This document shows positions 11,774 through 53,636 of a stretch of 64,000 nt of DNA, piece after piece. The stretch's first letter is position 1. Each line of letters begins with the position of its first letter. Where the stretch lies: positions 71,429-135,428 of the forward strand of contig CAWBOU010000047.1 of the NCBI GenBank assembly GCA_963790365.1, in the 5' to 3' direction. A program made the position numbers and the translations under genes. The notes under the pieces were generated by a model that saw nothing but the letters and a program-made list of their open reading frames with translations, searched no databases and was not told the DNA's origin. The DNA is from an uncultured delta proteobacterium (GTDB taxonomy: Bacteria > Desulfobacterota > Binatia > JACPRU01).

Positions 11774-11827
11774 GACCGCCCGCCATGAGGCGTTCCCGGG
11801 CCCGCGTCAATGACTCGGGAACCGATG

Positions 11828-11866
11828 CACCCCCTCAGGGGGTCGGGCGTAAGCCCGGGGGGTGAG
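11828..11866. repeat. REP-like element, family B
   Basis: CACCCCCTCAGGGGGTCGGGCGTAAGCCCGGGGGGTGAG (two nested hairpins). Copies at 16011 and 17095. Confidence 0.75.
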
Positions 11867-11870
11867 TCGC

Positions 11871-12320: not shown

Positions 12321-12436
12321 TTCGCGGGTTCTTAGCGAGGAAGCGCGCGGCGCAAAAGAGCCGGCCTGACTTTTTCGGCCTCGGGTGGTCTCCGGCGACG
12401 ACGCTCTTGGGCGTCGGTGACACCGTCGCCAGGAAA

Positions 12437-13366: not shown

Positions 13367-13417
13367 CGGGCCCTCTCTCTACCTTGCGAAACGTGACCAC
13401 GGTAGATTCCGCCCGCG

Positions 13418-14749: not shown

Positions 14750-14843
14750 GGGGCGCCATCCATAGGCGTCAATCAGCCGCCCTGCGTCAAGGCCCAGTTC
14801 GCCCGACGGAGGGGGCGGTGAGCTCGCTTGACGCCGCGCGCGA

Positions 14844-16005: not shown

Positions 16006-16010
16006 CAAAT

Positions 16011-16052
16011 GCTCACCCCCCGGGCTTTCGCCCGACCCCCTGAGGGGGTGCC
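16011..16052. repeat. REP-like element, family B (inverse orientation)
   Basis: CTCACCCCCCGGGCTTTCGCCCGACCCCCTGAGGGGGTG is the reverse complement of the 11828 copy. Confidence 0.75.
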
Positions 16053-16054
16053 TC

Positions 16055-34391: not shown

Positions 34392-34474
34392 TCGGGATTC
34401 TCTTTCGACGCTACAACACCGGTTGCGCCGGTCGCAAGATCGGCAAATGTCTCTACCGAGGAGGTTCCGCGACG

Positions 34475-37916: not shown

Positions 37917-39027
37917 TTACCCCGTATGGCACTCGGCGCACTTCGTCGGGCCGCCGTCCTTCTTATGACAATCGATGCATTGCGTGTGGTACGCGTCCTC
38001 GAAGCTCGGGCAGGCCTTGTTCTTCTTCCCCACCGTCGCGCCGTTGCACTCGTTCGCGGTGTGGCAGCCCGAGGAAGAGCACGAGTACGAGGGCACCGCC
38101 CCGCCCTTCGCCTTCACCGGGTGATGACACGTCTCGCACTTGATCGAGTAGTCTTCCCAATGCGCCTTGTGCGTGAACGGCGTGGCCGGCCGCTTCTTCG
38201 CGGTGCCGGCGATCGGCTCGAGGTTCACGTTGTCGGGCCCGTTGCCGGCCGGCTTCTTCGCCGGTGCCGCCTTCGGCTGCGGCGGCCGGCTTCGCGGCGG
38301 GCGCCTTCGTGCCGCCCTCCGCGGCCGGTGCCTTCGCAACTTCCGTCTTCTTGTCGGCGGGAGCGGCCTTGGCCGGCGCCGGCTTCGCCGCGGGATCCGC
38401 GAGCCGCGCGGTCTCGACCCAGCCCTCGATCGCGCCGCCGTCGATCACCTGCGTGCGGACGCGCGACCAACCCTCGCGATCCTCCAGCACCTCGACGTCG
38501 GTGCGGCCCTGGAACTCGCCGAGCACCGCGCCACTCGGCGACGAGGCGAGCTCGGTGCCGCGCGCGGCGACCGCGCGGCGTGCGAGCCGGATCGGCGTCG
38601 GCTCGGCGACGGGCGCGGGCTTGTCGGCGACCGCGGCGGGCGGCTCCGGCTTCGGCTCGTCGACCACGACGGTCTTGCCTGCGGCCTCGTCCTTCGGCTC
38701 GGCGGCCGGCGCCGCCGGCTCGGTCTTCGGCGGCGCCGCCTTGGCGACTTCCTTCGGCGCCGCTTTCCCGTCGGCGCTTTCCTTCGCCGCGGCGCTCTCC
38801 TTTGCCTCGTCCTTGGCAGCCGAGTCTTTCGCCGGCTTCTCCTTGCCGGGCTTCGGCGTGTGCGCCGAGAGCGCGGCGCCGACCCGCGTCGCGGCCTTCG
38901 GCGTCTTCAGCCGAGTTTCGACGATCGGCGTGCGCCCCGCCGCGCCGCTTTCCTGGTCGCGCCCGCACGCAACCAGCACGAGAAGCGCAAGCCCGACCGA
39001 AACACCCGCTCGTCGAAGGCCGCTCAT
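37917..39027 (-). pseudogene. lipoprotein: bacterial SH3-like domain + Ala/Pro/Lys linker + tetrahaem cytochrome c3-like domain (one frame change near 38285)
   Basis: ATG 39027 after GGGAGAG (ATGA overlap with the upstream stop). [21 protein letters not shown] lipobox; ..LGEFQGRTDVEVLEDREGWSRVRT..GWVETARL. After the shift: FTHKAHWEDYSIKCETCHH, CSSSGCH, CIDCH, CAECH. Confidence 0.75.
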
Positions 39028-42000
39028 TCGCTCTCCCGCAGGCGAACGCCGGGCGCTTCGCGGAGCCTCACGCCCGGCCCCTCGCGCAGCTTGATGCCGG
39101 GCGCCTCGCGGAGCTTGATCCCGGGCTGCTCGATCACCGGCTGGCCGCGACGAACGCGCTCGACGCCTTCCGGCGGCGGCGCGGCCTCCGCGGCGACCGT
39201 CTGGAACGTGAGCTCCTTGCCGTCGTCGGGCGCGAAGTCCGTGACGGTGTAGAGCTCGCCGTTGCGCACGTAGAGCCGTCGCATCTCGTCCGCCGTGAAC
39301 GGGCGGCCGCCGCGGCGGCCGAAGACGGCGACCTGGTTGCCGGTCTCGTCGACCGCGCGATCGCGGTCGAGGCCCTTCGAGAGCGCGATCGCCGGGCCGT
39401 GCGTCGGGAACGATGGCGATCAAGTGCGGCTGCGGCCTCGGGCTGAAGCCGAAGTGCCCGGAGCTTCCCGTCGGCGACGTGAGCTGCAGCACGCGGAGGC
39501 CGTTCTTGCCGTCCGCGACGTAGGCGAAGAGGCTCGCGTTCGTCATGCCGACTGCGGACGCGCGCGCGTCGTTCATCTCGCCGCCCGCGTCGAACGTCTC
39601 GACGAGCTTCGGCGTCATCGGCTTCTCGACGTCGACGATCGCGATGCCCTGCGCGCCCGCTGCGACGTACGCGTACGTGCGCGCCACGTAGACGTCGTTC
39701 GCCGCGGCGATCGGCACCTTCGCGTCGGGCACAACGACCGGTTTGTCATGCTCGGTGATGTCGAGGACCTTGAGGCCCTCGGCGTCGGCGACGAACGCGT
39801 AGCGGAACTGGCGATCGATCGCCCGCGGCTTGACGATCGCGGGCGCGCCGATCTCGGCGGTCACGCGGGGATGGAGCGGATCGTCGAGGTCGACGACGAC
39901 GAGCCCGCGGTCGCAGAGCACGTAGGCGTACGTGCCGGTGATCGCGACGTTGCCGCGCCGTCGAGGACGCCGCCCGGGTTGAACGTCAGCGGCGCGCTCG
40001 AGGAAGTTGTTCGCGGGATTGCCGTCGAGCAGCGTCGCGGCGTGCACGAGGATCAAGCCCTCCTCGCGGTCGGTCACGTAGAGGTAGCGCGTAGAGCGGA
40101 TGGATCGGCTGCTCCTCGTTCTCGGCGAGCCGGTCCGCGCGGGATCGACCGCGAGCGTCGCCGGCGCCGCGACCGAGGTCGCGTCCTTCGTCTTCACGTA
40201 GAGGCGCTGCCCGAGCGGCGAGACGGGCGCCGTGGTGATGCGCTCCGAGAACGCCCTTGTTGTCGATGTTGGCGACGTCGTAGACGCGAAGGCCGCCCGG
40301 CCCGTTCGCCGCGTAGAGGTACTCGCCGCGCAGCTGCAGGCTCTGCACCTCGTCACCGCGGCCGCACAGCCAGGAGACTCGAGGATGTCGTTGCCGGGGT
40401 GCTCGATGACCTCGTCGAGCTCGCGATCGCGCTCGACGTGGCGGCGGTATCGCATCGGGATAGGCGAGCGGTGGAGCTGGCTGCCGATCACCGCCTGCGG
40501 CTCGTCGCCCTCGGTGACCGCCACCGCCTCGAGCCCTTCGTCCTCCGAGCCCGACGTACGCGAAGCGGCCGAAGAAGTTCACGAAGCTGCGTGCCGTGGA
40601 GCAGCAGCTGCGCCATCCACGCGTTGTTGTCGCCTCGGTCGGAGACGTGGCAGTCCGTGCAGACCTTCGTCTCCGTGCGCGCGCACGGTGTGCGGCACGT
40701 GCGTGTTGAACGCCTGGCCGGTGAAGCCCTCCGCGGAGATCGTCTGCTGCTGCGAGTAGAACCACTCGCGGTTCTGCGTTCTGCGAGCTCACGAGCACGC
40801 GCGCTCGACGAGCGCACCGGCGAGATCCGGCTGCCCGCGGCGGTGCCGTCGCTGCCGAGCATGAAGACGTCGTCGCGCAGCACCTGGAAGTTGTAGCCGG
40901 TCCAGTTGCGGAGCTTCTCGCCCTCGTTGTGGAGAGTTCGTGCGGCGGTTCGCCTGCTGCGAGCAGATGGCAGCCGAAGCAGCTCGTCATCCACGAGGTG
41001 TGGCACGTGAAGCAGGTCATCTTGTCGTCGCCGTGCGCGAGCGCGCTCGCGTCGTCCGGCACGTCGCCCCACGTCTTGCCGTCTCTGCGGATGGTCTTCG
41101 CGAGGCGCGAGGCCTCGTTGTAGTGCGCGCTCGCGGGATCCACGGTGTCGCGCGTCTGCACGACTTCCCACTCGACGTTCGGCGTCACCGCCGAGCGCTG
41201 GAAGAGCTTGGCGCCCTTCTTGAAGAACGCGCTCGCCGAACGCCGTGCGGTTGTACTTCTTCAGCGGATTTCCGCCCGCGGGCCCGCGGGTCTTCCAGTC
41301 GCGCGCCGTCGGATCGGCGAGCGCGGAGATCGAGCCGTGGCAGTCGATGCACTGGATCTCGATCGCGTTCCGCACCTCGCCGTAGAGCTTGCCGTCGCCG
41401 TGCGCGTCCTGCTCGAAGTGGCAGTCGACGCAGTGCATCCCCTTCTCGAGGTGGATGTCCTTGAGATGCACGGCCTTCTTGAAGCGCTCGGGATCGTCCC
41501 ACGGGATCGTCTTGCCGCGCGCGTCGAGCAGGTTGCCCTTGCGATCCTGCTTGTAGACGTTCCGGAAGATCCAGCCGTGGCCGTGGAAGTCGGCGAACTG
41601 CGTCTTCGTGAGCTTCGGGTTCAGATCCGTCAGGTTCGCGAGGAACTCCGGCGTCGGACCAAGGCCGCGGAGCGCCGCGCGGCCTCGGGTTCGCCGTCTC
41701 GAGCGTCGACGCTGCTCGCTCGCGGCGAGCGCCTCTTCGGCTCGCGCTGATACGAAGCGCTCGCCGTCGGTCTCGTTGTCCCACCAGGTCGTGCCGTAAT
41801 ACGTGTTCACGACGTTCGTGCCCGGATGCATGTGGCAGACGACGCACTGGCTCGACGGGATCGCGCTCGTGAACTGTGCCGGATCGGGTGGCCGGGCTCG
41901 TCCTTCGGGATCGTCGGGTCGACCGTCGCCGTCTGGCCGCGGTTGCCGAACTGGGCCCACGGGCCGGAGTGCACCGGGTCGCGATCGTTCGCGTAGACGA

Positions 42001-42956
42001 CGTGGCAGCCGGTGCAGCCGCTCGAGCGGTAGTCGCCGGGGTGATCGTTCGTGCCGAGCATGTGGAGGATCGGGTCGAGCAGACGCGTCTTCTGCAGGCC
42101 GAAGAAGACCGGGTCCGTGCGATTCGCCGTGCCGAGGCCGCGCTGGCTGAGTCGCCGCTCGGGCGCCCCGGAGGATCCGGCTCGAGCACGTTGATGTTGC
42201 CGATCTCGAGGGCTTCCGCCCGCCGCGCTCGAAGAAGCGGAGGATGTTGCCGGGCTGGCTGATCTCCCACCGCGCGAGCGGCGCGAGGAACGGCAGGATC
42301 CCGCGCTTTTTCGTCGCCTCCGCGTCGGGCGCATCTTTGGCGACGAGCGCCTGCGGCTTGCCGTCGCGGCCGTAGCTCTCGCCGAAGCGCGGGTCCTTCA
42401 CCGGGATCGAGCCGTTGTTGTAGAGCGCCGCGCCCCAGAGGCTCGCCCCGTGGGTCATCATGCTCGTCTTCACGCGCGCGACCTGATCCGCGTGACATCC
42501 GTCGAGCCCGCACGTGCGGTCCGCGACGCGGAGATCCCCGGGGTTCATGAACTGTACGAACTCGGGGCTCTCCTTCAGGAACGCCGCGTTCGAGCGGACG
42601 GGGTTCGCGCTCGTCTTGAAGACGTCCGCCTGAAGCGGCGCGACGTGGGCGGTCTCCTTGTCCTTGGCGCCGATGGTCCCCCCGTGACAGTCGACGCACG
42701 CGAGCGGGATGTCCGCCTCGTGCATCGACGCCGAGTCCGTCGAGGTGTGACAGGAGACGCAGCCCTCGTTCTTGCGCGTGACGTCGTCCGACGATTGGCT
42801 CATCAGGTCGACGGTCGGCGCCTTCGCGGTCTCCGCCGCGGCGGGGGTGTCCGCGCTCGCAGGCTCCGGCGCCTCGTCGGCGGTCGTCGCCACCGGCGCG
42901 ACGATCAGAAAGAGCGCGAGGAGAGTGCGCGACAGGGGGAAAGTTCTTCTTACCAC
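39024..42956 (-). pseudogene. about 1300-codon multihaem cytochrome c fused to an LVIVD-repeat beta-propeller, read through at least a dozen frame changes (or assembly indels)
   Basis: Signal MVRRTFPLSRTLLALFLIVAPVA. Haem sites CVSCH, CVDCH, CGLDGCH, CTGCH, CVVCH, CVDCH, CIDCH, CFTCH, CFGCH, CTDCH. Then, with no stop, GEYLYAANGPGGLRVYDV, GTYAYVLCDRGLVVVDLDD, YAFVADAEGLKVLDI, YAYVAAGAQGIAIVDV, FAYVADGKNGLRVLQL. C-terminus has 4x PG(I/V)(K/R)LRE. Confidence 0.7.
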
Positions 42957-44713
42957 GTGAGCGTCACGGCCAAGAAGGTCGAGAACAGCGTCTGGTCGCG
43001 GAGTATCTCGCGAAGCCCCTCGAACGGCGTCAGCGCGGCGGCGCTCGCGACGAGGATCACGTTGTCGATGAGCAGCGGCCGGTACTGGATGCCGATCGAG
43101 TAATCGAGGCCGATGTTCGGATCGATGTCGGCCTGCTCGAGCACGAGCTCGAGCGAGTCGGTTTCCGCAAAGCGGAGATAGTTCACGTTGACGACGGCGC
43201 GGAGCTTCGGCGTGAGCTCCATGTCGAAGCCCACGTTCGAGACGATGACGCCGGGGTTCACGAAGTTCGGCTGGCCCTCGAACTTGCTCGTCCGGAGGCT
43301 CGGCAAGAGCGAGAAGCGTTGGTCGAGCGCGACCGGCGCGCCAGTCAGCGGTAGGCCCTGGCGGTTCCAGTAGCTGAACCCGCCGCCCGCGAACGCGCTG
43401 TTGTCGGAGATCGTGTCGAAGCCGTTCGCATCGTCGTCGAGCGGATCGTCGTCGCCCGAGGCGTAGAGCACCGAGATCTTCGGGCGCAGCCAGTCGCGGT
43501 CGAACGAGAGCTCGAGCGCGGCGAGCTGCGCGTTGATGTCGACCTGGCGGCCGGCGATCGGATTGAAGTCGTCTTCGCCGACGACCCAGTAGAAGGCGTG
43601 ACTGACGTTCAGCCAGCCGACGTGCCCCTCACCCGCCCAGCCGGCGTAGTAGGCGTCGATGTCGTGGAAGCGGACGCTGCCGTCGGGGATGACCGAGCCG
43701 ACGACCGCCGGGCGCACGAGGAACCCGTTCTCGTCGAAGTGCGTCTCATCCGCGTGGTCCGCGTTGTAGTGGAACGAGAACTGGGTGGTGTAGCCGTACC
43801 AGAACGTGTCCTGGCGGTAGAGATTCGCGATGGCCACGTCCTGCTGGCGATCCTCGAACGCGTCGAAGCTGTCGAGGCGGTTCAAGCCGCTGTTCGTGTC
43901 CTTCTCGAGCGGGCGGAAGTACGCGAGGTTGTACTGCCACTGGTTCGCGCCCCAGTTGCCGAAGAGGCGCGCGCCCGCCTGGTTGTCCGCGAAGATGAAG
44001 CCGCGGAAGTCGCTGGTGAAGCCCTGCACGCCGAGGCGCGTCGAGATGAAGTCGTAGTAGTCGTTCAGATCGCCGAGGTGGTACTCGACGAGGGCCTCCT
44101 GGATGCCGACGAAGCCGTCGAATCGCGTGGTGCCCTCGCGCGGATCGATCTCGAGGACGTTCTCCTCGCCCGCGTCGACGTAGCTGATGTTGAAGACCGG
44201 CGTGAAGCGGATCTCCCAGTCGCGCGGCTTGAACGCGGATTGGCCTTTGAAGAACTCGAACGAGGTGACGAAGTTCTGGTTGAAGACGAGGATCTCACTC
44301 TGACCGAAGAAGTCGTCGCGATCCGCCTCGGCCGCCGGAATGCCGCTCGGCTTCGGAATCCGCGACGCCTCGAAGAGCGTGTCGGAGACGCCGGTGAACG
44401 CGAGGAAGATGTCCTGCCCGAGGATCGGGTAGTCACCCTTCGCCACGTTCTGGTTGTACGGGTCGTACCAGCGGCCCTCGACCAAGGGATGCTCGCCCGG
44501 CGTCGACTCGTAGCGCTGCCAGCGCGGGAAACCGATGCGCCATCGGTCGGGCAGCGGCAGGAAGTCGTCGTCCGTCGCGCTCTGCATGCGCCGCGGGCGG
44601 CCGGCGGCGCCGAGCGTCTGGCCGAAGTCGGGGCCGGCCTCTTGCGCGGCCGCGACGAGCGGCGACGAGAGGCACGCGAGAAGCACGGACACTGCCGTCC
44701 TTCGAGCATTCAT
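42950..44713 (-). CDS. outer-membrane beta-barrel (porin-like) protein
   Basis: Signal MNARRTAVSVLLACLSSPLVAAAQ; alternating beta-strand-like composition rich in Y/F/W/G/N/D; terminal ..FLAVTLTW (aromatic C-terminus). Overlaps the cytochrome start by 7 nt. Confidence 0.75.
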   Translation of the reverse strand: MNARRTAVSVLLACLSSPLVAAAQEAGPDFGQTLGAAGRPRRMQSATDDDFLPLPDRWRIGFPRWQRYESTPGEHPLVEGRWYDPYNQNVAKGDYPILGQDIFLAFTGVSDTLFEASRIPKPSGIPAAEADRDDFFGQSEILVFNQNFVTSFEFFKGQSAFKPRDWEIRFTPVFNISYVDAGEENVLEIDPREGTTRFDGFVGIQEALVEYHLGDLNDYYDFISTRLGVQGFTSDFRGFIFADNQAGARLFGNWGANQWQYNLAYFRPLEKDTNSGLNRLDSFDAFEDRQQDVAIANLYRQDTFWYGYTTQFSFHYNADHADETHFDENGFLVRPAVVGSVIPDGSVRFHDIDAYYAGWAGEGHVGWLNVSHAFYWVVGEDDFNPIAGRQVDINAQLAALELSFDRDWLRPKISVLYASGDDDPLDDDANGFDTISDNSAFAGGGFSYWNRQGLPLTGAPVALDQRFSLLPSLRTSKFEGQPNFVNPGVIVSNVGFDMELTPKLRAVVNVNYLRFAETDSLELVLEQADIDPNIGLDYSIGIQYRPLLIDNVILVASAAALTPFEGLREILRDQTLFSTFLAVTLTW

Positions 44714-44715
44714 TT

Positions 44716-46302
44716 CTATCGTTCCGGTTGGCGGTTGAACTTCAGGTACGGAATCCGTTCTCCGGCGAAGAAGAAGTTGTCGATGCGGATCGCGTCGGGC
44801 GGCTCGAAGCCTTCGGCACCCTCGGCGGCGATCACGTCGTTGTTCTCGACGCCGTCGCCCGAGACGCCGAGCCCGCCGATCAGGTTGCCGGCGCCGTCGT
44901 AGAGCGGCACGGCGCCCGGGAAGAACGTGAGGCCGTTCTGCCGTCCGGGCACCGGCGGCGCGTTGCCGAGGCGCGTCGCCTGCTCGGGACGCTGGTTCTG
45001 CAGCGCGAGGTTGAAGAGCGGGCCGGGCGCGGTGCCGTCGATGCCCGGCGGGAAGACCGGCTGCGAGAGGAAGCCGAGCGCGGTCGTCGTGGTCGCCGTA
45101 CCGTTCGGGACGCCGGGGATCGCGTCCTGCGGCGCGGGCCCTTCCGGCCGGCTGTAGTAAACCACGGAGCGCGCCTTCGCAGGCACGACGTCGACCGCGT
45201 CCGTCAGGCAGTCCTCCATCCGGAAGTGGCCGAGGATGAGGCCATCGAGATCCGTGATCGTGATGATCACGACGGCGGTCGTGCCGCCGGGCAGACGGAC
45301 CGCCGCGCGCGTGCGGTTCGAGCTCGCCACCGCCTGCTGAACGATGCGATCGACCGCTTCCGCGGGGAAATTGCCGCGAGGGCTGCTGCGCGGCCCGATC
45401 AGATAGCCGAACGGATCGACGTTGCCGTCACGCGGCGCGACCGTGATCGCGCCCGAGCCGTCGCCGGGCGGCGCACCCGCTGGACGGTCGAACGTCGCGA
45501 CGAACGGCAGGCGGATGCCGAACAGCACGACCGCGCCCTCCGGCGGAATGTCCACGGGAAAGCGGAAGCCGGCCGAGCCGGAGAACGCGGCGAACTCGCT
45601 CGCGTCGAAGGACAGGCTCGGCGCGTAGGCACCGACGCCGCCGACGAGCCGGCCGTTCTTGTAGAGCGGCACCGCGCCCGGGAGCAGCGTGATGCCCGGG
45701 CTCGGGAAGCTGCCGTCGATGTTCGTCGAGCGCGGATATGCCTGTCCGGGATTGAAGCTCGTGTCCCCCGTCTCGATCGGCGCGCCGCGGTTCGTCGCGT
45801 TGATCTGCCAGAGCGGCCCTTGGTCGGTCCCGGGAACCCCGGAGGTCGTGAGCTGCGGCGCGATCACCGTCGGGCCGCAGCTGCCGCCGCTCGACGGACA
45901 GACGGACGGGAGCAGCGGCGCCGAGAACGTCGGCGGGAAGTGGAAGGCGCCGAGGAACTGCACGGTGCGCGAGCTGAGCGGCGCCTGGCTGTTCGAGAAG
46001 AACGAGGTCGTGCGGGCGAGGCTGACGGCGATGTTCTGCACGTCGCGGCCCGCGCCGGGATAGGCGAAGACGCCGAGGATCGAGCCCTGGCGGTCCGTCA
46101 CGGCGAGCGCCAGGTCGCTCGCGGCGACCGCCGCCGCGCCCTGCTGGAGGACCTGCGAGACGTCGCCGGCGGTGAGCGGCGTGACCGGGCCGAACGTGGG
46201 CGTTTCGAGATCGCTCCCGCTGCCGCCGCAGCCGATCGCGATCGCCGCGACGAGAACCGCGAATCGTCGCGAAGTGCGCCCCAGGATCGCCGGCTCCCCC
46301 AT
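44716..46302 (-). CDS. lipoprotein with two GlcG/HbpS-like (DUF336) domains
   Basis: ATG 46302 after GGAGGAGG. MGEPAILGRTSRRFAVLVAAIAIGC lipobox. Two copies of (LA)VTD..G.ILG.. and PGAVPLY..G.L(V/I)GG(V/L)G(A/V); the second is PGAVPLYDGAGNLIGGLGVSGDGVENNDVIAAEGA. Confidence 0.75.
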   Translation of the reverse strand: MGEPAILGRTSRRFAVLVAAIAIGCGGSGSDLETPTFGPVTPLTAGDVSQVLQQGAAAVAASDLALAVTDRQGSILGVFAYPGAGRDVQNIAVSLARTTSFFSNSQAPLSSRTVQFLGAFHFPPTFSAPLLPSVCPSSGGSCGPTVIAPQLTTSGVPGTDQGPLWQINATNRGAPIETGDTSFNPGQAYPRSTNIDGSFPSPGITLLPGAVPLYKNGRLVGGVGAYAPSLSFDASEFAAFSGSAGFRFPVDIPPEGAVVLFGIRLPFVATFDRPAGAPPGDGSGAITVAPRDGNVDPFGYLIGPRSSPRGNFPAEAVDRIVQQAVASSNRTRAAVRLPGGTTAVVIITITDLDGLILGHFRMEDCLTDAVDVVPAKARSVVYYSRPEGPAPQDAIPGVPNGTATTTTALGFLSQPVFPPGIDGTAPGPLFNLALQNQRPEQATRLGNAPPVPGRQNGLTFFPGAVPLYDGAGNLIGGLGVSGDGVENNDVIAAEGAEGFEPPDAIRIDNFFFAGERIPYLKFNRQPER

Positions 46303-46366
46303 GTCCTCCTCCCCGATGCGGCGGGTAACACGCCCGCTCACGCACGGTCAACGAGAGTCAAACGAG

Positions 46367-46450
46367 AGGGGACGTTGCGCTCTTGTTGTCCTTTTCGCCG
46401 CTTCTCCAACGGGCGTCCCGGAAAAGGACAACAAGAGCGCAACGTCCCCT
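46367..46450. repeat. 30-bp perfect inverted repeat (large hairpin) between the FHA-cytochrome gene and the DUF336 gene
   Basis: AGGGGACGTTGCGCTCTTGTTGTCCTTTTC (46367-46396) is the exact reverse complement of GAAAAGGACAACAAGAGCGCAACGTCCCCT (46421-50); 24-nt loop. Confidence 0.9.
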
Positions 46451-46462
46451 TCACTCTTTCCG

Positions 46463-49400
46463 TCACGACCAGGCGATGACTTGCTCCTGCTTCTCGACGA
46501 ACGGCACGCCGATCTTTTCGATCCAGCCGCGCGGCGGGTCCGCGCCGATGAGCGCGAAGACGTGCACGCAGTCGAGCGTGCGCGGCCCGGCGGCGAGCTT
46601 CAGCACGGCACCCTCGGCGCGCAGCTCGGTCACCGACGACTCCCAGACGATCTCGATCCGGCCGGCCTTCGAGAGCTCCTCGATCTGCTCGAGATTCCGC
46701 TTCTTCACGCGCGCAAACGCGTTCTTGCGGTAGGAGAGCCAGACGGTCGTGCCCTCCGCCTTGCCGAGCGCGACGGCCGCCTCGATCGCGCTGTCGCCGC
46801 CGCCGACGACGAGCACCTTCTTGCCCTTCCAATCCCCGGCGTCGATCAGGTTGTAGGAGACGAGGCCCGCCTCTTCGCCCGTGCAGCCCAGACGACGCGG
46901 GTTCCCGCGCGTGCCGATCGCGAGCACCACGTTCGCGGCGGTGTACTCGCCCTTCGCGGTCTTCACCTTGAGGAGCTCGCCCTCGCGGCGGATCTCGCTC
47001 ACTTCCTCGTGCTGCTGCACCTCGAGGCCGGTCGCCTTCACGACCGCTTCCCACACCGCGATCAGCTCGTCCTTCTCGGCGTCCATCATGGGAAGCTTGC
47101 CGTAGAGCGGAACCTTCACGGGCTCGGCGAGCACCGCCTTGTCGCGCGGGTACGCGCGGATCGTGCTCGCGACCGTGTCGCGCTCGAGGACGAGGTAGCG
47201 GAGACCCGTGGCCTTCGCCTCGAGGCCGGCGCCGAGGCCGGCGGGCCCGGCGCCGACGACGATCACGTCGTAGTGCGGCGCAGCGACTCGCTTCTTCTTG
47301 TCCTTGATGTACCGCACGACGTCGGTGCCCTGGTTCACCGCCGATTTGATCAGCGCGGCACCGATCACCTCGCCAACGAAGAAGAGGCCCGGCATCGGCT
47401 TCGCCTCGAGGTGGTCGTCCGTGTCCGGCCGCTCGACCGTGCGCACCAGCGGCGCGGTGCTGACGCGGATCGCACCCGTCGGACAGCCCTGCTCGCAAAC
47501 CGCGCAGCCTTCGAGCGCGATGCAGCTGTCGGGATTGACGACGGTCGACTTGCCGTGGTCGTCGCCCGCGAGCACCTGCTTCGGGCACGAGTTGTAGCAG
47601 CTGCTGCACGAGATGCAGGCTTCGACGTCGACCGTCGGGAAGGGCATGACCTCGCCCTTCGGAGTGTCTCCCTCGGGCGGCGCTCCGGCCGGCGCCTGGC
47701 CCGGCCCGGCCGCGGCCTGCTCCGGCTCGAGATAGCGCCGCGCGACGCGCATGTCCGTGTAGAGGTAGGCGAAGCCGCCGAGGATGAGCGTCGCGAGCCC
47801 GATCAAGAAGCGATCGAAGCCGCGTGCGGGCGGGGCCGCGGCCGCGGCGGTCTCGCCGCCGTCGAAGCTGTGGTGCGAGCGATGGCAATCGAGGCACGCG
47901 ACCGTCGCCTTCTTCTCCTCGTGGCAGGTCACGCACGCGTCCATCGTCATCACGTAGACGTCGGGCGAGCGGAACACGCTCGCGTACGTCCCCTCCTCCC
48001 ACACCGGCGCGTGGCAGCTCTGGCAGAGCTCCTCGCCATGATCGCGATGCGCGAACCGCGTCCACGCGAACGCGCTCGGCGGGAGCTCCTGCATCTCCCC
48101 GTCCTCGCGCGTGTGGCATTCGAGACAATCCGGGCCCTTCTTCTGCTGCGCGACCTTCTCGTCCGCCGAGACGGCCTTCTCGTGGCACTCGATGCACTGT
48201 GCGTGGCCGGGCATCGCGAACGTGCGGCCGTCGTCCACGTTCGCGTGGCAGCCCGTGCAGTTGTCGAACCTCGCCTCCCCTTTCGTTTCCGCATCGTGAG
48301 CCGCGTGCGCGAAGCGGAGACCGATCTCGACCTTGCGGAACGGCTCGGCGAGCTTGGCGATCGCGGCGGTGCCGCCGGCGACCGTGGCCGCCGCGCGCAT
48401 CGGCCGCGCGTCGAAGTCGCGCGGCTCGTCGCGCCCGAGGTGGCAGCTCCAGCAGACGTCCTTGCCGCCGGCGATCGGGAAATTCCGGCCGCGATGGTCG
48501 GTGTGGCAATCGAGGCAGTTGTCCTGGATACCTGGTTCGTTCGCGAGCGCGCTCGCGTGGCAGTCCGCGGTGACGCAGCTGCCACTCATCGCGAGCTGCG
48601 TCTGACGAGTGCCGATGCCCTCGAAGCCGGCGTGGCAGCTGCCGCACTTCTCGCGCGACTCGAGCTCGGCATGCTCGGCGTGGAGCGGCCCGGCCGAGAG
48701 CAGCGCCGGATACTGCATGCTGAAGCCGAGCGAGACGATCGCGGCGAGGAGCATCATGCCGAGGCTCGCCCACTGTCGCGGCGTGCCGGGCACGCGCACC
48801 GGGCGAAGGCTCACGCCCTTCATGATGCGGCTGATCCGCTGCTTCGCCTCGGCGCTCTTCGCGAGCTCCGGGATCGGCTCCGCCTTCTTGCCCTTGCCCT
48901 TCGCGGCCGGCGCTTCCCCACCCGCGGCCGGTGGCGCGGCGGAAGGCGGTGCGGCAGGAGGCGGCGGAGCCGCGGCCACCGCGCCGATGCGCGTGAGCTG
49001 CGTGCCCTCCTCGACCGCGGACGCGACGCCGGCTCCGCCGAGCTCCACCGCGACGCGCGCATCGCCGAGCCGGAGCTCCTCGCCGCCGCGAAGCGGAAGC
49101 GACTGCACGCGCTCCGTGGAATCGCCGACGAACGTGCCGTTCCGGCTGCCGATGTCCTTCAGGACCCAGCCATCCGGCGTGCGCAGGACCGTGCAGTGAT
49201 TCCCCGAGACCGAGGGATCGTCGATCCGGAGCATCGCGGCCGAGCTGCGGCCGATCGTCACCTCTTGCGTGCCGGCCGGGACCTCGAGCACGCTGCCGGA
49301 CGCGAGGATGCGGAAGCGGAGCACGGGCGGGGCGTCGGCCGCCGGCACTGCGTCGGTGGCGGGCAGCGGCGCATCCGCCGGAGCCGCCTCGGCTTCAGCC

Positions 49401-50164
49401 TCGCGCGGGCGGATCGCGGTGAGCGATGGCATCGAGAGCGCGAACGTGGACTCGCCCACCTTGATCGCGAACGTCTGCTCGGAGGCCTCGACCTTGGCGC
49501 CGCCGCCCATCTCGACGCGGATCTGAGTGCCGCCGCCGAGCCGCACGATGTCTCCATGCGCGAGAACGCCGTGGTAGATCCTTTGCGGAGGCGTGCCGAC
49601 GTAGATGCCGTTTCGGCTGTTCTCGTCGTAGATCGCGTAGCCGCCCTTCTCGCGCTTGATCGTCGCGTGAAGGCGCGAGAGCGACGGGTCGTTCAGCGGC
49701 ACGTCGTTCGTCGGCAGCCGCCCGAGCGTGATCTTCTCCTTCGGCGGCGAGAAGACCTGGCCGCGATCCGGCCCGGAGACGACCGTGAGCACGATCGGCA
49801 GGTCCGACGGCAGCTGCGCGATGACGGTCGCGCCTTCGGCCTTCACGGCCGCGGCCTGCCCGGCGAGGATCGCGACGCGGAGGCGCGCCTTGCCGACGAG
49901 AATCGTCTCGCCGTCGGCGAGCCGCCGGCGCTTCACCCGATCCTGCGAGCCCTCGACGAACGTGCCGTTCCGACTCTCGAGATCGACGAGCGCGAAGCCG
50001 TCGCCGTCGCGCTCGATCGCGGCGTGCTTGCGCGAGATCTGATCGTCGTCGAGCTCGACGTCGGCTTCGACACGCCCGATCGTGAGCCGCTCACCACGCA
50101 GCTCGAACTCATGCCGTTTCTTTTCAGCATCGAACCAGGCGAGCTTCAGTCGCGTCGAAGGCAT
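46463..50164 (-). CDS. 3x FHA, TM, about 10-haem cytochrome c domain, TM, 2x[4Fe-4S] ferredoxin, FAD/NAD(P)-binding oxidoreductase fusion protein (1233 aa)
   Basis: Uninterrupted ORF. FHA patterns at aa 25-95, 143-215 and 300-372. Hydrophobic helices at aa 465-483 and 785-802. Nine CxxCH plus CVTADCH between them. CISCSSCYNSCP and CIALEGCAVCEQGCP. VIVVGAGPAGLGAGLEA and VLVVGGGDSAIEAA. Confidence 0.9.
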   Translation of the reverse strand: MPSTRLKLAWFDAEKKRHEFELRGERLTIGRVEADVELDDDQISRKHAAIERDGDGFALVDLESRNGTFVEGSQDRVKRRRLADGETILVGKARLRVAILAGQAAAVKAEGATVIAQLPSDLPIVLTVVSGPDRGQVFSPPKEKITLGRLPTNDVPLNDPSLSRLHATIKREKGGYAIYDENSRNGIYVGTPPQRIYHGVLAHGDIVRLGGGTQIRVEMGGGAKVEASEQTFAIKVGESTFALSMPSLTAIRPREAEAEAAPADAPLPATDAVPAADAPPVLRFRILASGSVLEVPAGTQEVTIGRSSAAMLRIDDPSVSGNHCTVLRTPDGWVLKDIGSRNGTFVGDSTERVQSLPLRGGEELRLGDARVAVELGGAGVASAVEEGTQLTRIGAVAAAPPPPAAPPSAAPPAAGGEAPAAKGKGKKAEPIPELAKSAEAKQRISRIMKGVSLRPVRVPGTPRQWASLGMMLLAAIVSLGFSMQYPALLSAGPLHAEHAELESREKCGSCHAGFEGIGTRQTQLAMSGSCVTADCHASALANEPGIQDNCLDCHTDHRGRNFPIAGGKDVCWSCHLGRDEPRDFDARPMRAAATVAGGTAAIAKLAEPFRKVEIGLRFAHAAHDAETKGEARFDNCTGCHANVDDGRTFAMPGHAQCIECHEKAVSADEKVAQQKKGPDCLECHTREDGEMQELPPSAFAWTRFAHRDHGEELCQSCHAPVWEEGTYASVFRSPDVYVMTMDACVTCHEEKKATVACLDCHRSHHSFDGGETAAAAAPPARGFDRFLIGLATLILGGFAYLYTDMRVARRYLEPEQAAAGPGQAPAGAPPEGDTPKGEVMPFPTVDVEACISCSSCYNSCPKQVLAGDDHGKSTVVNPDSCIALEGCAVCEQGCPTGAIRVSTAPLVRTVERPDTDDHLEAKPMPGLFFVGEVIGAALIKSAVNQGTDVVRYIKDKKKRVAAPHYDVIVVGAGPAGLGAGLEAKATGLRYLVLERDTVASTIRAYPRDKAVLAEPVKVPLYGKLPMMDAEKDELIAVWEAVVKATGLEVQQHEEVSEIRREGELLKVKTAKGEYTAANVVLAIGTRGNPRRLGCTGEEAGLVSYNLIDAGDWKGKKVLVVGGGDSAIEAAVALGKAEGTTVWLSYRKNAFARVKKRNLEQIEELSKAGRIEIVWESSVTELRAEGAVLKLAAGPRTLDCVHVFALIGADPPRGWIEKIGVPFVEKQEQVIAWS

Positions 50165-50174
50165 CGTCGGAATC

Positions 50175-51245
50175 TCAGTAGTAGAAGACCGACACGATGT
50201 GGATCAGCGAAAACGCCGCGAGCCCCGCGGAGAGCGGAATGTGCGCGGTGAGCCACACCTTCAGCAGGTAGTCGTATCGCAGCTGCGGATAGAGCGAGAC
50301 TTCGAGCTTCTCCTTGTCGAAGACGAGCCGCATCGCCTTGCGGAAGTCCTCCTGCTCGCCGGCAGGGATCTCCTTGACGATCAGCCGCAGGCGATCCGGC
50401 CGGCTCGTGTCGCGCTCGAGCGTCGCCGGGCCCCAGATCCAGGGGAGCGACGGCTTCATCGCGATGCCCGGAATCGACATCTCGACGTCGTACACGCGGC
50501 GGAACGCGTCGGACTTCCCGGTCGCGAGACCCTTCAGCTCTTCGAGGACCTGCTTCAGCTCGTCCCGCAGCTCCTCCGGCGACCGCGCCGCCTTCTCCTC
50601 GATCTCCGTGAGCCTCGGCGGGATGCGGCGGTAGAGGACCACACCGAGGAGCCCGGTCAGCACGACGGCGACGAGCAGCACGAAGGCGATCGCGGCGATC
50701 GGGTTCGCGAAGCGGAAGCCCGCGTGAAGGAGGATCAGCACGACGGCGAGCACGCCGAGCGCGAGATGCCACTCGTACCAGACCTGCAGACGCCCGCCCC
50801 ACTCGCGCCGCTCGAAGACGAGCCGCGGCGCGCCGCTGCTCGTCTTCAGGAGGCGCACGCGGATCGTCCTCGTCACCTTGTGGCGCTTCAGGATCTTCTT
50901 CACCTCGCTCCGGAGCTGCCGCAGGTCCTGCTTCGGATTCTGCATCAGCGAGCGCTCGACGCCGCGAAGGTCGTTCTGCGCCTTGCGCTCGCGGCTCACG
51001 AGGTCCCTGCGCTTCTCCGCGTCGATGAGGATCGGCCGGCTCGCGCGCTCGATCTGCCGACGCCGCCATCCGTAGAGACCGGCGACGATCATCGCGAGCG
51101 TGCCGAAGATGCCGAGCCACACGCCCGTCGCCGAGCGGCCGGAAGGCGCGAGCGGACGAACCGAGGCGTCCTGCGTGTACCAGATGGCGCACGCGATCGC
51201 GGCGAGCACCGCGATCGACACCACTCGCAACCTGAGAGCGCTCAC
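50175..51245 (-). CDS. 5-TM membrane protein with two H-x13-H helices (candidate dihaem b-type cytochrome)
   Basis: 356 aa. Helices around aa 8-24, 41-60, 160-177, 183-205 and 331-353. His160/His174 and His335/His349 are each spaced by 13 residues inside helices. Starts 4 nt after the upstream stop. Confidence 0.75.
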   Translation of the reverse strand: MSALRLRVVSIAVLAAIACAIWYTQDASVRPLAPSGRSATGVWLGIFGTLAMIVAGLYGWRRRQIERASRPILIDAEKRRDLVSRERKAQNDLRGVERSLMQNPKQDLRQLRSEVKKILKRHKVTRTIRVRLLKTSSGAPRLVFERREWGGRLQVWYEWHLALGVLAVVLILLHAGFRFANPIAAIAFVLLVAVVLTGLLGVVLYRRIPPRLTEIEEKAARSPEELRDELKQVLEELKGLATGKSDAFRRVYDVEMSIPGIAMKPSLPWIWGPATLERDTSRPDRLRLIVKEIPAGEQEDFRKAMRLVFDKEKLEVSLYPQLRYDYLLKVWLTAHIPLSAGLAAFSLIHIVSVFYY

Positions 51246-51249
51246 GCCG

Positions 51250-52794
51250 CTACTCCCGAGCGGAAATGATGCGATCCAGCTCGTCGGCGCGCAGCCGCTG
51301 GATCGCCCCCGTTGGACAGTTGCTCACGCAGGCGGGGAACAGATGTCCCTTGTCGAGATCGCACTTCACGGGGATGCGCTTCAGCTTCGGCCGCTTGTCC
51401 GTCGCTTCCGGGACGTCGGCGCGGCGCCGGCCGTCGCGGCGCAGCACGACGTCGATCAACGAGGGCACCGCCGGCCGATCGATCTCGTCGGTGTCGACCA
51501 TCGTGATGTTCCCGTAGGGACACCGCTGCGCACATCCGCTGCAGCCGATGCAGCTCTCGGTGAAGTAGATGTCACCGTCCTTGTCGCGCTTGATGCCGCC
51601 CGACTTGCAGAGGAGGCACGACGGATCCTGACAGAAGCGGCACGCCGTCGGGATCATCAGCTCTTCGAAGTGCACGCCCTTCCGGATCAGGCGCGAGAAG
51701 CCGTCTTCGTGCGCGGCCGCGCAGGCCTTCACGCAGTTGTCGCAGCGAACGCACGTATCTTCGTTGATCACGATGACGTCGAGGTTCGGCATGACCTCGG
51801 CGCGAAGCTCCATGCGCCTGCCGACGAACGTGACGTTCGCGACCATGTCGGCGTCGAGGCGCCGTACTTGATCGACGGCCCCGGCCTCCGCCGCGGCCGC
51901 GGGATTCGACATCACGATCTCGCGGAACGCCTTGCCCGCGAGGACGAGCGCTTCGACGCGGCCGAGCGCCGTGGCGGTCGCGGAGCGAGGCGCCCCGTTG
52001 AGGACGCCGACGTCACCGAAACAGTCGCCTTCGACGAGATACGAGAGGACCCTCGTTTCGCCGTCGGCCTCGCGCTGGGCGATCTTCACGAAGCCGGTGG
52101 AGATCACGAAGACGTCGTCGGAAGGCTGTCCCTGCTCGAAGATCGTCGCGCCGACCTCGAACGTGCGCGTCGACGCCGCGCGGAGCACGTTCTCGAACTC
52201 CTTCTCGCTCGCCGAGCGCAGCACCGGCACGCGACGCACGAGCGTGCGGATCACCCGGAACACGTACCGCTCCATGATCGCCGCGCGGAAGCTTTCGGTC
52301 GTCGAGACGAGCTCTTGGACGATGAACTGCGGGATCAACATCAAGAGCGCCGGCGTCTTCGTCACGACGCTCGCGAGGTGTGCGTTCATGGAAAGCACAG
52401 AGTGCTCGCCGAAGAACGAGCCTTCGGGAAGATCGTCGACCGGCAGCGCGACGGTGCGATCGATGTCGGCGGAGTAGTTCGTCGACATCCCCGCCTGCCC
52501 GCGCAGGATGAAGAAGAGATGCTCGCCGAAGCTGCCTTCCTGGAAGACGCTCGTGTCGGCCGGAACTTCCCAGAACTCCGCGTGCTCGCCGAGCGCATCG
52601 CCGACGGAAACCTTGACCGGCCCCTTCGCGCCCGGCCGCGTCTCGTACGGCTTGTCGAGCAGGTCCTTGAAGAGCGCGAGGCCTTGGAAGAAGCGCAGCT
52701 TCTCGTCCGCGGAGAGGCTCAGCTGCTTCACCGCCGGCGATCGCGTCAGCGCAAAGCTCGGTCGATGAGCTTCGCTCGACTCCAGGAGTGCCAT
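51250..52794 (-). CDS. two cyclic-nucleotide-binding domains fused to a multi-cluster [4Fe-4S] ferredoxin domain
   Basis: ATG 52794 (MALLESSE..). cNMP-like FQEGSFGEHLFFILRG..FFGEHSVL, and a canonical second domain IFEQGQPSDDVFVISTG..CFGDVGVLNGAPRSATATA. CVRCDNCVKAC, CRFCQDPSCLLC, CIGCSGCAQRCP, ..ACVSNCP. Confidence 0.85.
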   Translation of the reverse strand: MALLESSEAHRPSFALTRSPAVKQLSLSADEKLRFFQGLALFKDLLDKPYETRPGAKGPVKVSVGDALGEHAEFWEVPADTSVFQEGSFGEHLFFILRGQAGMSTNYSADIDRTVALPVDDLPEGSFFGEHSVLSMNAHLASVVTKTPALLMLIPQFIVQELVSTTESFRAAIMERYVFRVIRTLVRRVPVLRSASEKEFENVLRAASTRTFEVGATIFEQGQPSDDVFVISTGFVKIAQREADGETRVLSYLVEGDCFGDVGVLNGAPRSATATALGRVEALVLAGKAFREIVMSNPAAAAEAGAVDQVRRLDADMVANVTFVGRRMELRAEVMPNLDVIVINEDTCVRCDNCVKACAAAHEDGFSRLIRKGVHFEELMIPTACRFCQDPSCLLCKSGGIKRDKDGDIYFTESCIGCSGCAQRCPYGNITMVDTDEIDRPAVPSLIDVVLRRDGRRRADVPEATDKRPKLKRIPVKCDLDKGHLFPACVSNCPTGAIQRLRADELDRIISARE

Positions 52795-52843
52795 GAGATG
52801 GGACCGTCTACCCGACTGCGACGCGCGACGGCAAGGAGCGCGG

Positions 52844-53626
52844 ATGTCAGTGCCGCCTCTCATCTGCTATGGGGCGCCCGTGGCTGCCCCCTCGCCCATC
52901 GACGACGCGCTCCGTCCCGTCGGCGAGCTCGCGGCCGGTTACGTCGACGACGGCATGCGCGTCGGCCTCGGAACCGGACGCGCCGCGTCGGCGTTCGTTC
53001 ACGCGCTCGCGCTGCGCGCGCGTGAGGGGCTCGACGTCGTCGGCGTGCCGACGTCCGAAGCGACGCGACGACTCGCCGAATCTCTGGGGCTCCGCGTCAC
53101 GGAGCTCGACGGCGTCGGCGAGCTCGATCTCACCGTCGACGGCGCGGACGAGGTCGATCCCCATCTCGATCTGATCAAGGGGCTCGGCGGCGCCCTCGTG
53201 CGCGAGAAGATCGTCGCGGCTTCGTCGGCCCGGCTCGTGATCGTCGTCGGCGGCGAAAAGCTCGTCTCTCGCCTCGGCGTGAAGACGCCGGTGCCGGTCG
53301 AGATCGTGCAGTTTTCCCGGCCGCTCTGCGAGCGGCTCATTCGCGCGCTCGGCGCCGAGCCGCGCCTGCGGATGACCCCCGCCGATTCGAAAGCGCCGTA
53401 CGTCACCGACAACGGAAACTTCATCTTGGATTGCCACTTCGCCGGCATCGACCATCCCCGCGCTCTGGAAGTCGCGCTGCGGGAGATCCCGGGGGTCGTC
53501 GGCACCGGCCTGTTCCTGAACATGGCGGAGCGGGTTCTCGTGCAGGAAGGCAACACGGTGCGCGTCCTCATGGCGCAACCGTCGCAGAGCGGAGCGACCT
53601 TGCATCCGATCGGGAAAGGGAAATAG
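52844..53626 (+). CDS. rpiA: ribose-5-phosphate isomerase A
   Basis: ATG 52844. [46 protein letters not shown]. Confidence 0.9.
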
Positions 53627-53636
53627 GCCTGCGACG

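Follow-up and report, generated by a model that had tools for sequence, protein, structure and literature searches.

A block of seven co-directional genes on the minus strand (37917-52863) of an uncultured Binatia bacterium encodes what we propose is a single redox system of the cell envelope, built around an outer-membrane barrel and a decaheme cytochrome fused to a beta-propeller. The window, meaning the whole stretch of DNA that we analyzed, comprises 64,000 nt of contig CAWBOU010000047.1 from a metagenome-assembled genome (MAG; GCA_963790365.1, positions 71,429-135,428, forward) and has a G+C content of ~70%. From sequence and predicted folds alone, and at a little short of even confidence, we read the seven genes as one system in which electrons pass outward from cytoplasmic NAD(P)H to a periplasmic reductase docked on the barrel, and the frame breaks that interrupt the cytochrome genes of this copy as assembly errors. 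Gene content, domains, synteny, predicted folds, and conserved histidines are the observations on which this reading is built. The features are listed below; Ptd names refer to a marine gene set that is compared in the final section, and cNMP denotes cyclic nucleotide monophosphate.

51250..52863, minus: polyferredoxin with two cNMP-binding domains, PtdE-like, predicted cytoplasmic; Pfam cNMP_binding E=7.5e-33 (two stretches) and several Fer4 families
50175..51245, minus: membrane protein of 356 aa with ~5 hydrophobic helices, PtdF-like, probably a di-heme b transmembrane carrier
46463..50164, minus: FHA-decaheme-FAD fusion of 1,233 aa, PtdG plus PtdC-like; FHA E=1.7e-48 (three stretches), Pyr_redox_3 E=1.8e-40, Fer4_7
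46368..46449, no strand: perfect inverted repeat with 29-bp arms, within the spacer of 160 nt that separates the four-gene module from the upstream block
44716..46302, minus: tandem HbpS-like (DUF336/GlcG-type) lipoprotein; PF03928 E=1.5e-17 on its C-terminal half
42950..44713, minus: outer-membrane protein (OMP) of 587 aa, predicted 18-strand barrel with a conserved N-terminal extension; AlphaFold2 and Foldseek
39024..42956, minus: secreted decaheme cytochrome with a seven-bladed LVIVD propeller, frame-disrupted as sequenced; LVIVD E=3e-18
37917..39027, minus: tetraheme c3 lipoprotein with at least one frameshift near 38340; Cytochrom_CIII E=5.3e-10
36704-37618, plus: EamA, bounding the cluster on one side
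from 52793 (to 55688), plus: rpiA and tkt, bounding the cluster on the other side

A conserved gene neighborhood

When one genome per species was scanned, relatives of the OMP turned up in at least 591 genomes, and the best 80 loci were analyzed. These come from Nitrospira, Acidobacteriota, Planctomycetota, Verrucomicrobiota, Chitinophagales, and Proteobacteria; NC10/Rokubacteria and Bacteroidota are also among the hosts of the system. Wherever at least 1.5 kb of downstream sequence was available, the gene for the decaheme-propeller protein lies on the same strand within 1.3 kb after the OMP gene, with a single exception among 67 loci (L023, where a 4.6-kb insert occupies 11600-16250). Three loci anchored on the decaheme-propeller gene show the same pairing. 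Inserts also occur between the two genes elsewhere, namely a HicAB toxin-antitoxin pair in L090 (9546-9985) and a 187-aa open reading frame (ORF) in L088 (9441-10004), so the junction tolerates interruption.

Families of neighboring genes were defined by cross-phylum clustering; greedy longest-ORF calling had picked antisense shadow ORFs in the high-GC loci. Those that recur around the OMP gene are as follows.

Tandem HbpS-like protein, usually divergent and directly upstream: 53 loci
FHA-transmembrane-multiheme protein: 38 loci
cNMP-polyferredoxin: 37 loci
Small multiheme cytochromes, in three clusters: 23, 17, and 13 loci
CHASE2-nucleotide cyclase: 9 loci

An initial annotation of the window had proposed that its four downstream genes form an envelope module and, together with the genes upstream, a block that should be syntenic in relatives. 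This expectation is borne out. Relatives within Binatia keep the HbpS-like gene, the OMP gene, an intact decaheme-propeller gene (1,196-1,305 aa), and the c3 gene (320-343 aa) together, and the upstream components are repeatedly linked to the module across phyla. We take this repeated linkage to mean that the 15-kb block is a functional unit, whose parts are predicted to lie in the cytoplasm, inner membrane, periplasm, and outer membrane.

The complete set is also present in a cultured organism, Sphingobium herbicidovorans MH, on plasmid pMSHV, and many further sphingomonads carry the system.

B6S01_RS18410: c554-like cytochrome
B6S01_RS18415: tandem HbpS-like lipoprotein
B6S01_RS18420: OMP, 40% identical to the window OMP
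B6S01_RS18425: decaheme-LVIVD protein, 46-52% identical to that of the window
B6S01_RS18445: FHA-decaheme protein
B6S01_RS18450: four-histidine membrane protein
B6S01_RS18455: FAD domain, two cNMP domains, and polyferredoxin

Within the window, the four genes of the downstream module lie on the minus strand at the coordinates first assigned to them. Of the tight junctions described by the initial annotation, the 7-nt overlap between the OMP and decaheme-propeller genes is confirmed as GTGGTAA (OMP stop TAA 42952-42950; GTG start 42956-42954), as is the ATGA overlap between the decaheme-propeller and c3 genes (stop TGA 39026-39024; ATG 39027-39025). The reported 3-nt gap between the HbpS-like and OMP genes is instead a spacer of 2 nt (stop TAG 44718-44716; OMP ATG 44713-44711). 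Both of these genes are intact as sequenced. Upstream of them, the spacer containing the inverted repeat folds at -90 kcal/mol (z=-7.0) with a loop of ~24 nt; both 29-bp arms are sole copies within the window, and a clear U-tract was not seen at the hairpin. Possible roles for it are transcription termination, RNA processing, or stabilization of the mRNA.

The outer-membrane pair

The window OMP belongs to a large family that has largely escaped naming. It has no Pfam match, a profile search of PDB sequences returned nothing significant, and an exact-match look-up of its sequence found no record. Homologues nonetheless number more than 7,700, with Candidatus Binatia MAGs at the top (92% identity), and 454 representatives fall at E<=1e-30 among 1.84 billion sequences clustered at 50% identity. 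An AlphaFold2 model built on 70 sequences (predicted TM-score, pTM, 0.74) contains 18 long strands, consistent with the beta-barrel OMP that had been suggested from the sequence. Foldseek places the model closest to AlgE (3rbh; E=4e-17, TM 0.7 on target), followed by the Occ/OprD channels. Two further elements are conserved: an N-terminal extension of 75 residues (PDRWR...WDPYNQN...KGDYPI), which is strongly conserved and poorly modeled, and a long loop at 420-488. Neither the window OMP nor its Sphingobium counterpart contains a CXXCH heme motif. Many homologues (P0362-P0423; L090:7198-9459) carry long N-terminal extensions that bring the total to as much as ~1,140 aa and include CarboxypepD_reg or AMIN domains; the window OMP has no extension of this type.

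Its partner, once the frames are corrected, is the ten-heme cytochrome with an LVIVD propeller that the initial annotation had recognized. The ten heme motifs, nine CXXCH and one CX4CH, are all conserved in the family alignment, and are spread thinly, at ten per ~780 residues. The LVIVD family (PF08309) is matched at 65.3 bits against a cut-off of 20.2, alongside a weak "choice-of-anchor B" match. In a model of a 1,112-aa orthologue (pTM 0.82), the seven-bladed propeller is predicted with a per-residue confidence (pLDDT) above 90. Among solved structures it comes closest to YbhE-type lactonases, the zinc chaperone AztD, and the B12-binding lipoprotein BtuG, with the cd1 nitrite reductase propeller lower on the list. 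A search of PDB sequences with the decaheme protein gave nothing significant, and when the orthologue model was compared with the PDB by Foldseek, the propeller alone matched and the heme domain did not. The sole named family to match the decaheme domain is Geobacter ExtM (NF040943), partially and at E=9e-21, its 74 bits falling far under the cut-off of 800. A type-I signal peptide is present, whereas a lipobox or other recognized surface-sorting signal is not.

The family is both large and well conserved. It has at least 8,000 members (all scored candidates were significant), almost all of them named "hypothetical", and identity is ~60% between Binatia, Acidobacteriota, Rokubacteria/Methylomirabilota, and "Wallbacteria". 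The C-terminal tail (39024-39180, minus) bears a repeated PG(I/V)(K/R)LRE and is disordered in the model, with like repeats in L001 and P0131. An acidic/basic motif that follows the propeller (P0131 residues 1023-1047) is nearly invariant and could be a cation- or partner-binding site.

Lipoproteins that accompany the pair

Two predicted lipoproteins flank the pair. The tandem DUF336 lipoprotein of the initial annotation is well founded: PF03928 matches the C-terminal half at 64.3 bits (cut-off 25), the N-terminal half shows 25% identity to that half (E=9e-9), and a lipobox, AIAIGC, is present. The closest solved relative is EfgA/GlcG (6bws, E=2.7e-9). An orthologue is found in 46 of the 64 loci with sufficient upstream DNA, mostly divergent and directly upstream of the OMP gene. 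We considered export by the Tat pathway, for which the window protein offers TSRRFAVL, and rejected it; the RR motif is missing from the orthologues, and the lipobox itself occurs in some lineages only. The protein may be an accessory factor that binds a ligand or tetrapyrrole, or acts in sensing.

The second lipoprotein had been described as an SH3/tetraheme-c3 protein. The tetraheme and lipoprotein parts of that description stand, with Cytochrom_CIII (PF02085) at 40 bits (cut-off 22.9), four heme motifs (CETCH, CSSSGCH, CIDCH, and CAECH), and a lipobox, LVLVAC; the protein also has a long Ala/Pro/Lys-rich linker, and its tetraheme domain is C-terminal. The SH3 part is weak, a possible SH3-like domain for which SH3_3 reaches 19.9 bits where 27 would be needed. 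In Binatia relatives the decaheme-propeller gene is followed by intact orthologues, 320-343 aa in length.

The inner module

Upstream of the hairpin lie three genes whose products could connect the cytoplasm to the periplasm. Orthologues of the cNMP-binding polyferredoxin occur within 10 kb of the OMP gene in 35 of the 80 loci, and are fused to the membrane protein, as a subunit with four transmembrane segments, in Acidobacteriota and to an FAD domain in Nitrospira and Sphingobium. The membrane protein has two transmembrane pairs of histidines, each spaced i/i+14, and none of the four residues varies among 16 sequences that span at least six phyla. Named families come close without reaching threshold: Ni_hydr_CYTB at 18.5 bits (cut-off 30.1) and DUF4405 at 21.8 (cut-off 26.7) for the window protein, and Ni_hydr_CYTB at 22.1 bits for that of Sphingobium; cytochrome b561 matches are likewise weak and sub-threshold. 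From its histidine pattern, the protein is probably a di-heme b transmembrane electron carrier.

The third protein is a fusion. Three FHA domains are followed by a transmembrane segment (465-483), ten heme motifs (507-761), a second hydrophobic segment, two [4Fe-4S] sites, and a TrxR/YpdA-like FAD/NAD(P) reductase. Across the loci, three non-homologous types of NAD(P)H flavoprotein appear at the cluster: TrxR-like in the window, Nitrospira, and Sphingobium; NuoE/F-like in L088; and NDH-2-like, with a cNMP domain of its own, in L090. That three unrelated flavoproteins of this kind have been recruited is our strongest argument that NAD(P)H is the cytoplasmic end of the chain.

Genes that may make or degrade cyclic nucleotides lie beside the cluster in several loci (L004:1892-4986; L091:15281-16129 and 23503-24246; L014, L025, and L070). 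They encode CHASE2 cyclases, metallo-beta-lactamase/Apyc1-like proteins, and metallophosphoesterases. Such cyclase and phosphodiesterase-fold genes, together with the cNMP-binding polyferredoxin, suggest a putative self-contained cNMP circuit.

A proposed path for electrons, and its alternatives

From these parts we infer a direction of flow, a set of protein contacts, a location for the decaheme-propeller protein, and a kind of substrate. The FAD domain would oxidize cytoplasmic NAD(P)H and pass electrons through the [4Fe-4S] sites in the C-terminal part of the FHA-cytochrome and through the cNMP-binding polyferredoxin. The inner membrane would be crossed on the two b-hemes of the four-histidine protein, from which electrons would enter the ten-heme periplasmic domain of the FHA protein. 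Small cytochromes of the c3 or c554 type would then act as a relay, a task that in the window would fall to the tetraheme lipoprotein, tethered to the outer membrane on its long flexible linker. The last stop would be the decaheme-propeller protein, a candidate terminal oxidoreductase of the periplasm that would dock on a dedicated 18-strand barrel. Rather than a sheath for a heme wire, the barrel would provide access for a substrate that is external or that permeates the outer membrane. Flow through the chain is probably gated by cyclic nucleotides, acting on the cNMP domains, and by Ser/Thr phosphorylation, read by the FHA domains.

Two considerations shape this proposal. Outward flow is favored because the inward route to NAD(P)+ is uphill in both redox potential and membrane potential, and no coupling subunit is evident. 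A docked periplasmic enzyme is favored because the predicted barrel has 18 strands, the decaheme protein lacks a lipobox and is conserved in the manner of an enzyme, the hosts are aerobic, and a NrfA-family pentaheme protein, beside a porin, takes the equivalent position in ptd. The complete envelope-spanning pathway of ~15 kb that the initial annotation envisaged thus survives as a conserved unit with parts in several compartments, and is not supported as an Mtr/Pcc-type conduit, the barrel having only 18 predicted strands and a likeness to substrate channels. In its fullest form the proposal describes a machine for electron export that bypasses the quinone pool, ends in a new terminal enzyme (the decaheme-propeller protein on its own barrel), and is switched by cNMP and phosphorylation; that full form is possible, and we regard it as rather doubtful.

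Several observations weigh against the proposal. The direction of flow is argued from thermodynamics only. The two modules need not lie side by side (neither L001 nor a JGI Binatia contig has the inner one within 10 kb), and in the window a strong hairpin divides them. The heme domain of the decaheme-propeller protein is without a structural relative, a catalytic heme with open coordination is not identifiable in the model, and the family alignment contains no invariant propeller His or Cys to mark a metal center. Propellers of the LVIVD and "choice-of-anchor B" kinds are typical of surface proteins, and an extracellular location fits as well as a periplasmic one. As for the artifact part of the reading, EamA is intact while flanked by two damaged genes, so any errors must be patchy.

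One alternative, in line with the initial annotation, is a true porin-cytochrome conduit. Part of the decaheme protein, or the c3 lipoprotein, would sit inside the barrel and deliver electrons to acceptors that are insoluble or extracellular (Fe(III), Mn(IV), or humics, for example), with a surface propeller that docks or reduces them. The strict and translationally coupled pairing of the two genes suggests a physical complex, the conserved periplasmic N-terminal extension and long loop of the OMP could hold a partner, and Cyc2 shows that a narrow barrel can join in electron transfer. Such propellers are usual at the cell surface, and in both Desulfovibrio ferrophilus and the Uet cluster, outer-membrane cytochromes are encoded together with propeller proteins. 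Against this, the predicted barrel has 18 strands and is AlgE/Occ-like, as compared with the 26 strands of MtrB; the absence of a heme motif means that the OMP is not Cyc2-like; and the decaheme protein has neither a lipobox nor a recognized surface-sorting signal. Conservation between phyla at ~60% identity is not what is usual in surface cytochromes, the hosts include obligate aerobes (Sphingobium and Nitrospira), and nothing in the cluster reaches the family thresholds for MtrA/DmsE or MtrC. We consider a conduit of this kind unlikely.

The chain could also be imagined to run inward, with the decaheme-propeller protein oxidizing a donor outside the cell or in the periplasm (such as Fe(II), Mn(II), or a reduced compound of sulfur or nitrogen) and electrons arriving at NAD(P)+ or at a disulfide in the cytoplasm. 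The hosts include chemolithotrophs (Nitrospira and NC10/Methylomirabilota, for instance), the FAD domain resembles YpdA and TrxR, enzymes of a type that can reduce disulfides, and Ptd genes are transcribed in a marine bacterium that uses sulfide and formate. Yet the step from cytochrome c potentials to NAD(P)+ in a negative cytoplasm is doubly uphill, with no proton pump or quinone site evident, and the cluster is common among heterotrophic aerobes. We think inward flow quite improbable.

Another alternative concerns this copy of the system and leaves the outward chain itself untouched: the cytochrome genes of the window might be genuine recent pseudogenes, and the module here a decaying remnant. 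As sequenced, 39024-42956 is not a single ORF. The phase of G+C at third codon positions (GC3) flips ~10 times between 42.3 and 39.4 kb, and a frameshift-aware protein-to-DNA alignment to the intact 1,281-aa orthologue in L001 calls for ~20 corrections of +1/-1; the close compensating pairs at 40960/40935, 40796/40774, 39987/39952, and 38850/38764 may be alignment noise, hence the two figures, ~10 by GC3 and ~20 by alignment. Plain tblastn had crossed the breaks at low identity and masked them, and the frameshift-aware aligner was used instead. The c3 gene has one GC3 phase flip near 38.34 kb, and so at least one frame change. Damage is also uneven, in that the EamA, OMP, HbpS-like, and FHA-cytochrome genes are intact.

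Other features of the broken gene are those of a gene under selection. Corrected for frame, it is 73% identical to L001 over 1,266 codons with zero stop codons, no stop interrupts the 1,280 codons obtained after correction, and every segment retains its GC3 signal. A Binatia MAG contig, L006, is 88.7% identical to the window at the DNA level over 4.47 kb. Relative to it, all indels in the HbpS-like and OMP genes preserve the frame, and those in the decaheme-propeller gene are isolated single-base events in what is an open frame throughout in L006. Measured on the codons of L006, the ratio of nonsynonymous to synonymous substitution rates (dN/dS, Nei-Gojobori) comes to 0.066 in the HbpS-like gene, 0.147 in the OMP gene, and 0.141 in the decaheme-propeller gene after frame correction; as this last value matches that of the intact OMP gene, selection on the cytochrome is not relaxed.

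Nor is the damage confined to cytochromes. The housekeeping gene pgi (34463-36072, plus) can be read only with ~nine frame switches, of a kind and density like those of the decaheme-propeller gene; these breaks were read directly across frames, since the TAL-PGI fusion of L001 (30% identity) gave only noise as a reference. In an acyl-CoA dehydrogenase gene (7996-9186, plus), the N-terminus is out of frame, as is an internal stretch of ~85 codons, after which the frame is regained. More patches of frame switching are seen around 17-20.5 kb. Altogether four unrelated genes carry ~one indel per 200 bp in patches, with clean neighbors, and such a density matches the error rate of unpolished long-read consensus. 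Because unrelated genes share this patchy damage while adjoining genes are clean, patchy consensus error in this assembly is the most likely cause of the frame breaks, and a true pseudogene is very unlikely. The initial annotation had named dead cytochrome genes as an outcome that would count against its proposal; their apparent death is most likely an artifact, and is not to be taken as biology.

Weakest is the notion, raised in part by the initial annotation as an unrelated nutrient porin, that the barrel is an AlgE-type polymer exporter or general nutrient channel beside cytochromes by coincidence: the fold is AlgE-like and one homologue has a precomputed PF13372 (Alginate_exp) match, but the window protein is under every Pfam threshold, no polysaccharide-synthesis genes recur among the neighbors, and a link to the decaheme-propeller gene that is almost invariable across many phyla (66/67 loci) essentially refutes the idea by synteny, leaving it barely credible.

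Neighboring genes

In Binatia the module sits amid genes of the pentose-phosphate and glycolytic pathways. In the window these are pgi (34463-36072) and rpiA with tkt (52793-55688); in L001 (1-7893) the counterpart neighbors are glucokinase, 6PGD, PGL, G6PD, and TAL-PGI. This may be coincidental synteny of the lineage, or may reflect a tie to NADPH supply. A Hanks-type Ser/Thr kinase with a C-terminal PEGA domain (33081-34841, minus) lies ~3 kb past the module and may be a partner of the FHA domains of the FHA-decaheme protein. Ser/Thr kinases are likewise found near the cluster in several loci, L090 among them.

Breadth and significance

Most of what is known of cytochrome systems that span the envelope comes from a handful of specialized bacteria that respire or oxidize metals. 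The system outlined here matched in at least 591 species-representative genomes, with thousands of homologues of each core protein, and extends to many hundreds of species in at least ten phyla, aerobic soil bacteria included. Its interest rests on this breadth, on its conservation, and on a near-total lack of characterization, and not on the copy in the window. If NAD(P)H-driven electron export is borne out, ordinary aerobic bacteria of soil and water would possess a regulated route of electron exchange, with a bearing on the chemistry of iron, manganese, humics, and reactive oxygen. It could also explain extracellular or periplasmic reductive chemistry, on metals, humics, or reactive oxygen species, in organisms that are not deemed electroactive. 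Sphingobium herbicidovorans MH, being cultured, offers an experimental handle on the complete set.

Comparison with known systems

In the literature that we searched, the outer module is not described, and the inner half has been noticed once, as part of ptdABCDEFG in marine Alphaproteobacteria (UBA11136 and others), in a single preprint that gives no function (bioRxiv 10.1101/2023.11.21.568154). There, PtdA is a NrfA-like pentaheme protein with a beta-sandwich, PtdB a porin, PtdC an FAD/NAD(P) oxidoreductase, PtdD a tetraheme cytochrome, PtdE a cNMP-binding 4Fe-4S protein, PtdF a ferric-reductase-like transmembrane protein, and PtdG a periplasmic decaheme protein (bioRxiv 10.1101/2023.11.21.568154). 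The genes at 46463-52863 hold counterparts of PtdC, PtdE, PtdF, and PtdG, matched by parts list rather than by sequence comparison, and the same set occurs in Nitrospira, Sphingobium, and others. A porin (the OMP, 42950-44713) and a tetraheme cytochrome (37917-39027) are likewise common to both. The differences lie in the outer module and in fusions: the position of PtdA is taken here by the decaheme-LVIVD protein of ~1,280 aa, which has no NrfA-type match; the tandem HbpS-like lipoprotein is additional; and the PtdG-like decaheme protein carries FHA domains and, in the window, is also fused to the FAD reductase. Hosts here are mostly from soil and freshwater, whereas ptd is marine. A search aimed at a Ptd-type locus with the Sphingobium cNMP-Fer4 domain returned sphingomonads only. 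The unusual composition that the initial annotation remarked on therefore applies to the outer module, which appears to be undescribed, and not to the inner half, which matches ptd part for part.

Its judgment that no part resembles MtrABC or OmcS agrees with profile searches, in which no member of the Mtr, Pcc, or OmcS families was found. As in the Mtr/Pcc systems (MtrCAB; OmaB-OmbB-OmcB), a barrel gene stands beside multiheme cytochrome genes, and the logic links an inner-membrane input to the outer membrane. Those barrels have 20-26 strands, compared with the 18 predicted here, and there is no counterpart of the compact periplasmic decaheme MtrA (the DmsE family, TIGR03508, gives 15.6 bits where the cut-off is 192). 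The Pfam MtrC/MtrF domain reaches 24 bits against a cut-off of 30. No deca- or dodecaheme lipoprotein is encoded here (the decaheme-propeller protein has a signal peptide and no lipobox, and the c3 lipoprotein, which may face either way, is tetraheme), and the input is apparently NAD(P)H by way of FAD, FeS, and heme b, in contrast to a quinol pool tapped through CymA, ImcH, or CbcL. The novel porin-multiheme cytochrome system of Verrucomicrobia (He 2017) was also considered and set aside as a different system, its periplasmic cytochrome having eight hemes and its barrel 20 strands or more. The comparison with Cyc2 fails in that the OMP lacks a heme-binding motif and the cytochrome is a separate protein of 1,280 aa.

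AlgE and the Occ/OprD channels, as 18-strand barrels, are the best structural matches to the OMP. They share no significant sequence similarity with it, their polysaccharide or catabolic gene context is absent, and the OMP has its conserved 75-residue N-terminal extension. Multiheme cytochromes are found with a beta-propeller and an outer-membrane barrel in Desulfovibrio ferrophilus (DFE_0448-0465) and the Uet cluster of Ca. Tenderia, where separate genes encode NHL-repeat propellers; here the cytochrome and an LVIVD propeller form one protein. Geobacter ExtHIJKLMNOPQS has a porin-like OMP (ExtI), several cytochromes, including the 12-heme ExtM, and inner-membrane redox proteins, and is tied to soluble selenite and tellurite rather than to Fe(III) oxide. 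At 74 bits against 800 there is no ExtM orthologue in our cluster, ExtM itself has no propeller, and the rhodanese, Rieske, and cytochrome b components of Ext are absent here.

A parallel to the logic of the proposed chain comes from Fre-MsrQ-MsrP and the NOX/ferric-reductase proteins, in which an NAD(P)H flavoprotein passes electrons to a di-heme b protein with two His pairs, and thence to a periplasmic or external acceptor, bypassing quinones. The membrane protein of the window falls under the Ferric_reduct and b561 thresholds, the proposed chain is lengthened by a polyferredoxin and a series of c-type cytochromes, and regulatory cNMP and FHA domains are present. In essence, the system that we propose would follow the same logic of electron export.

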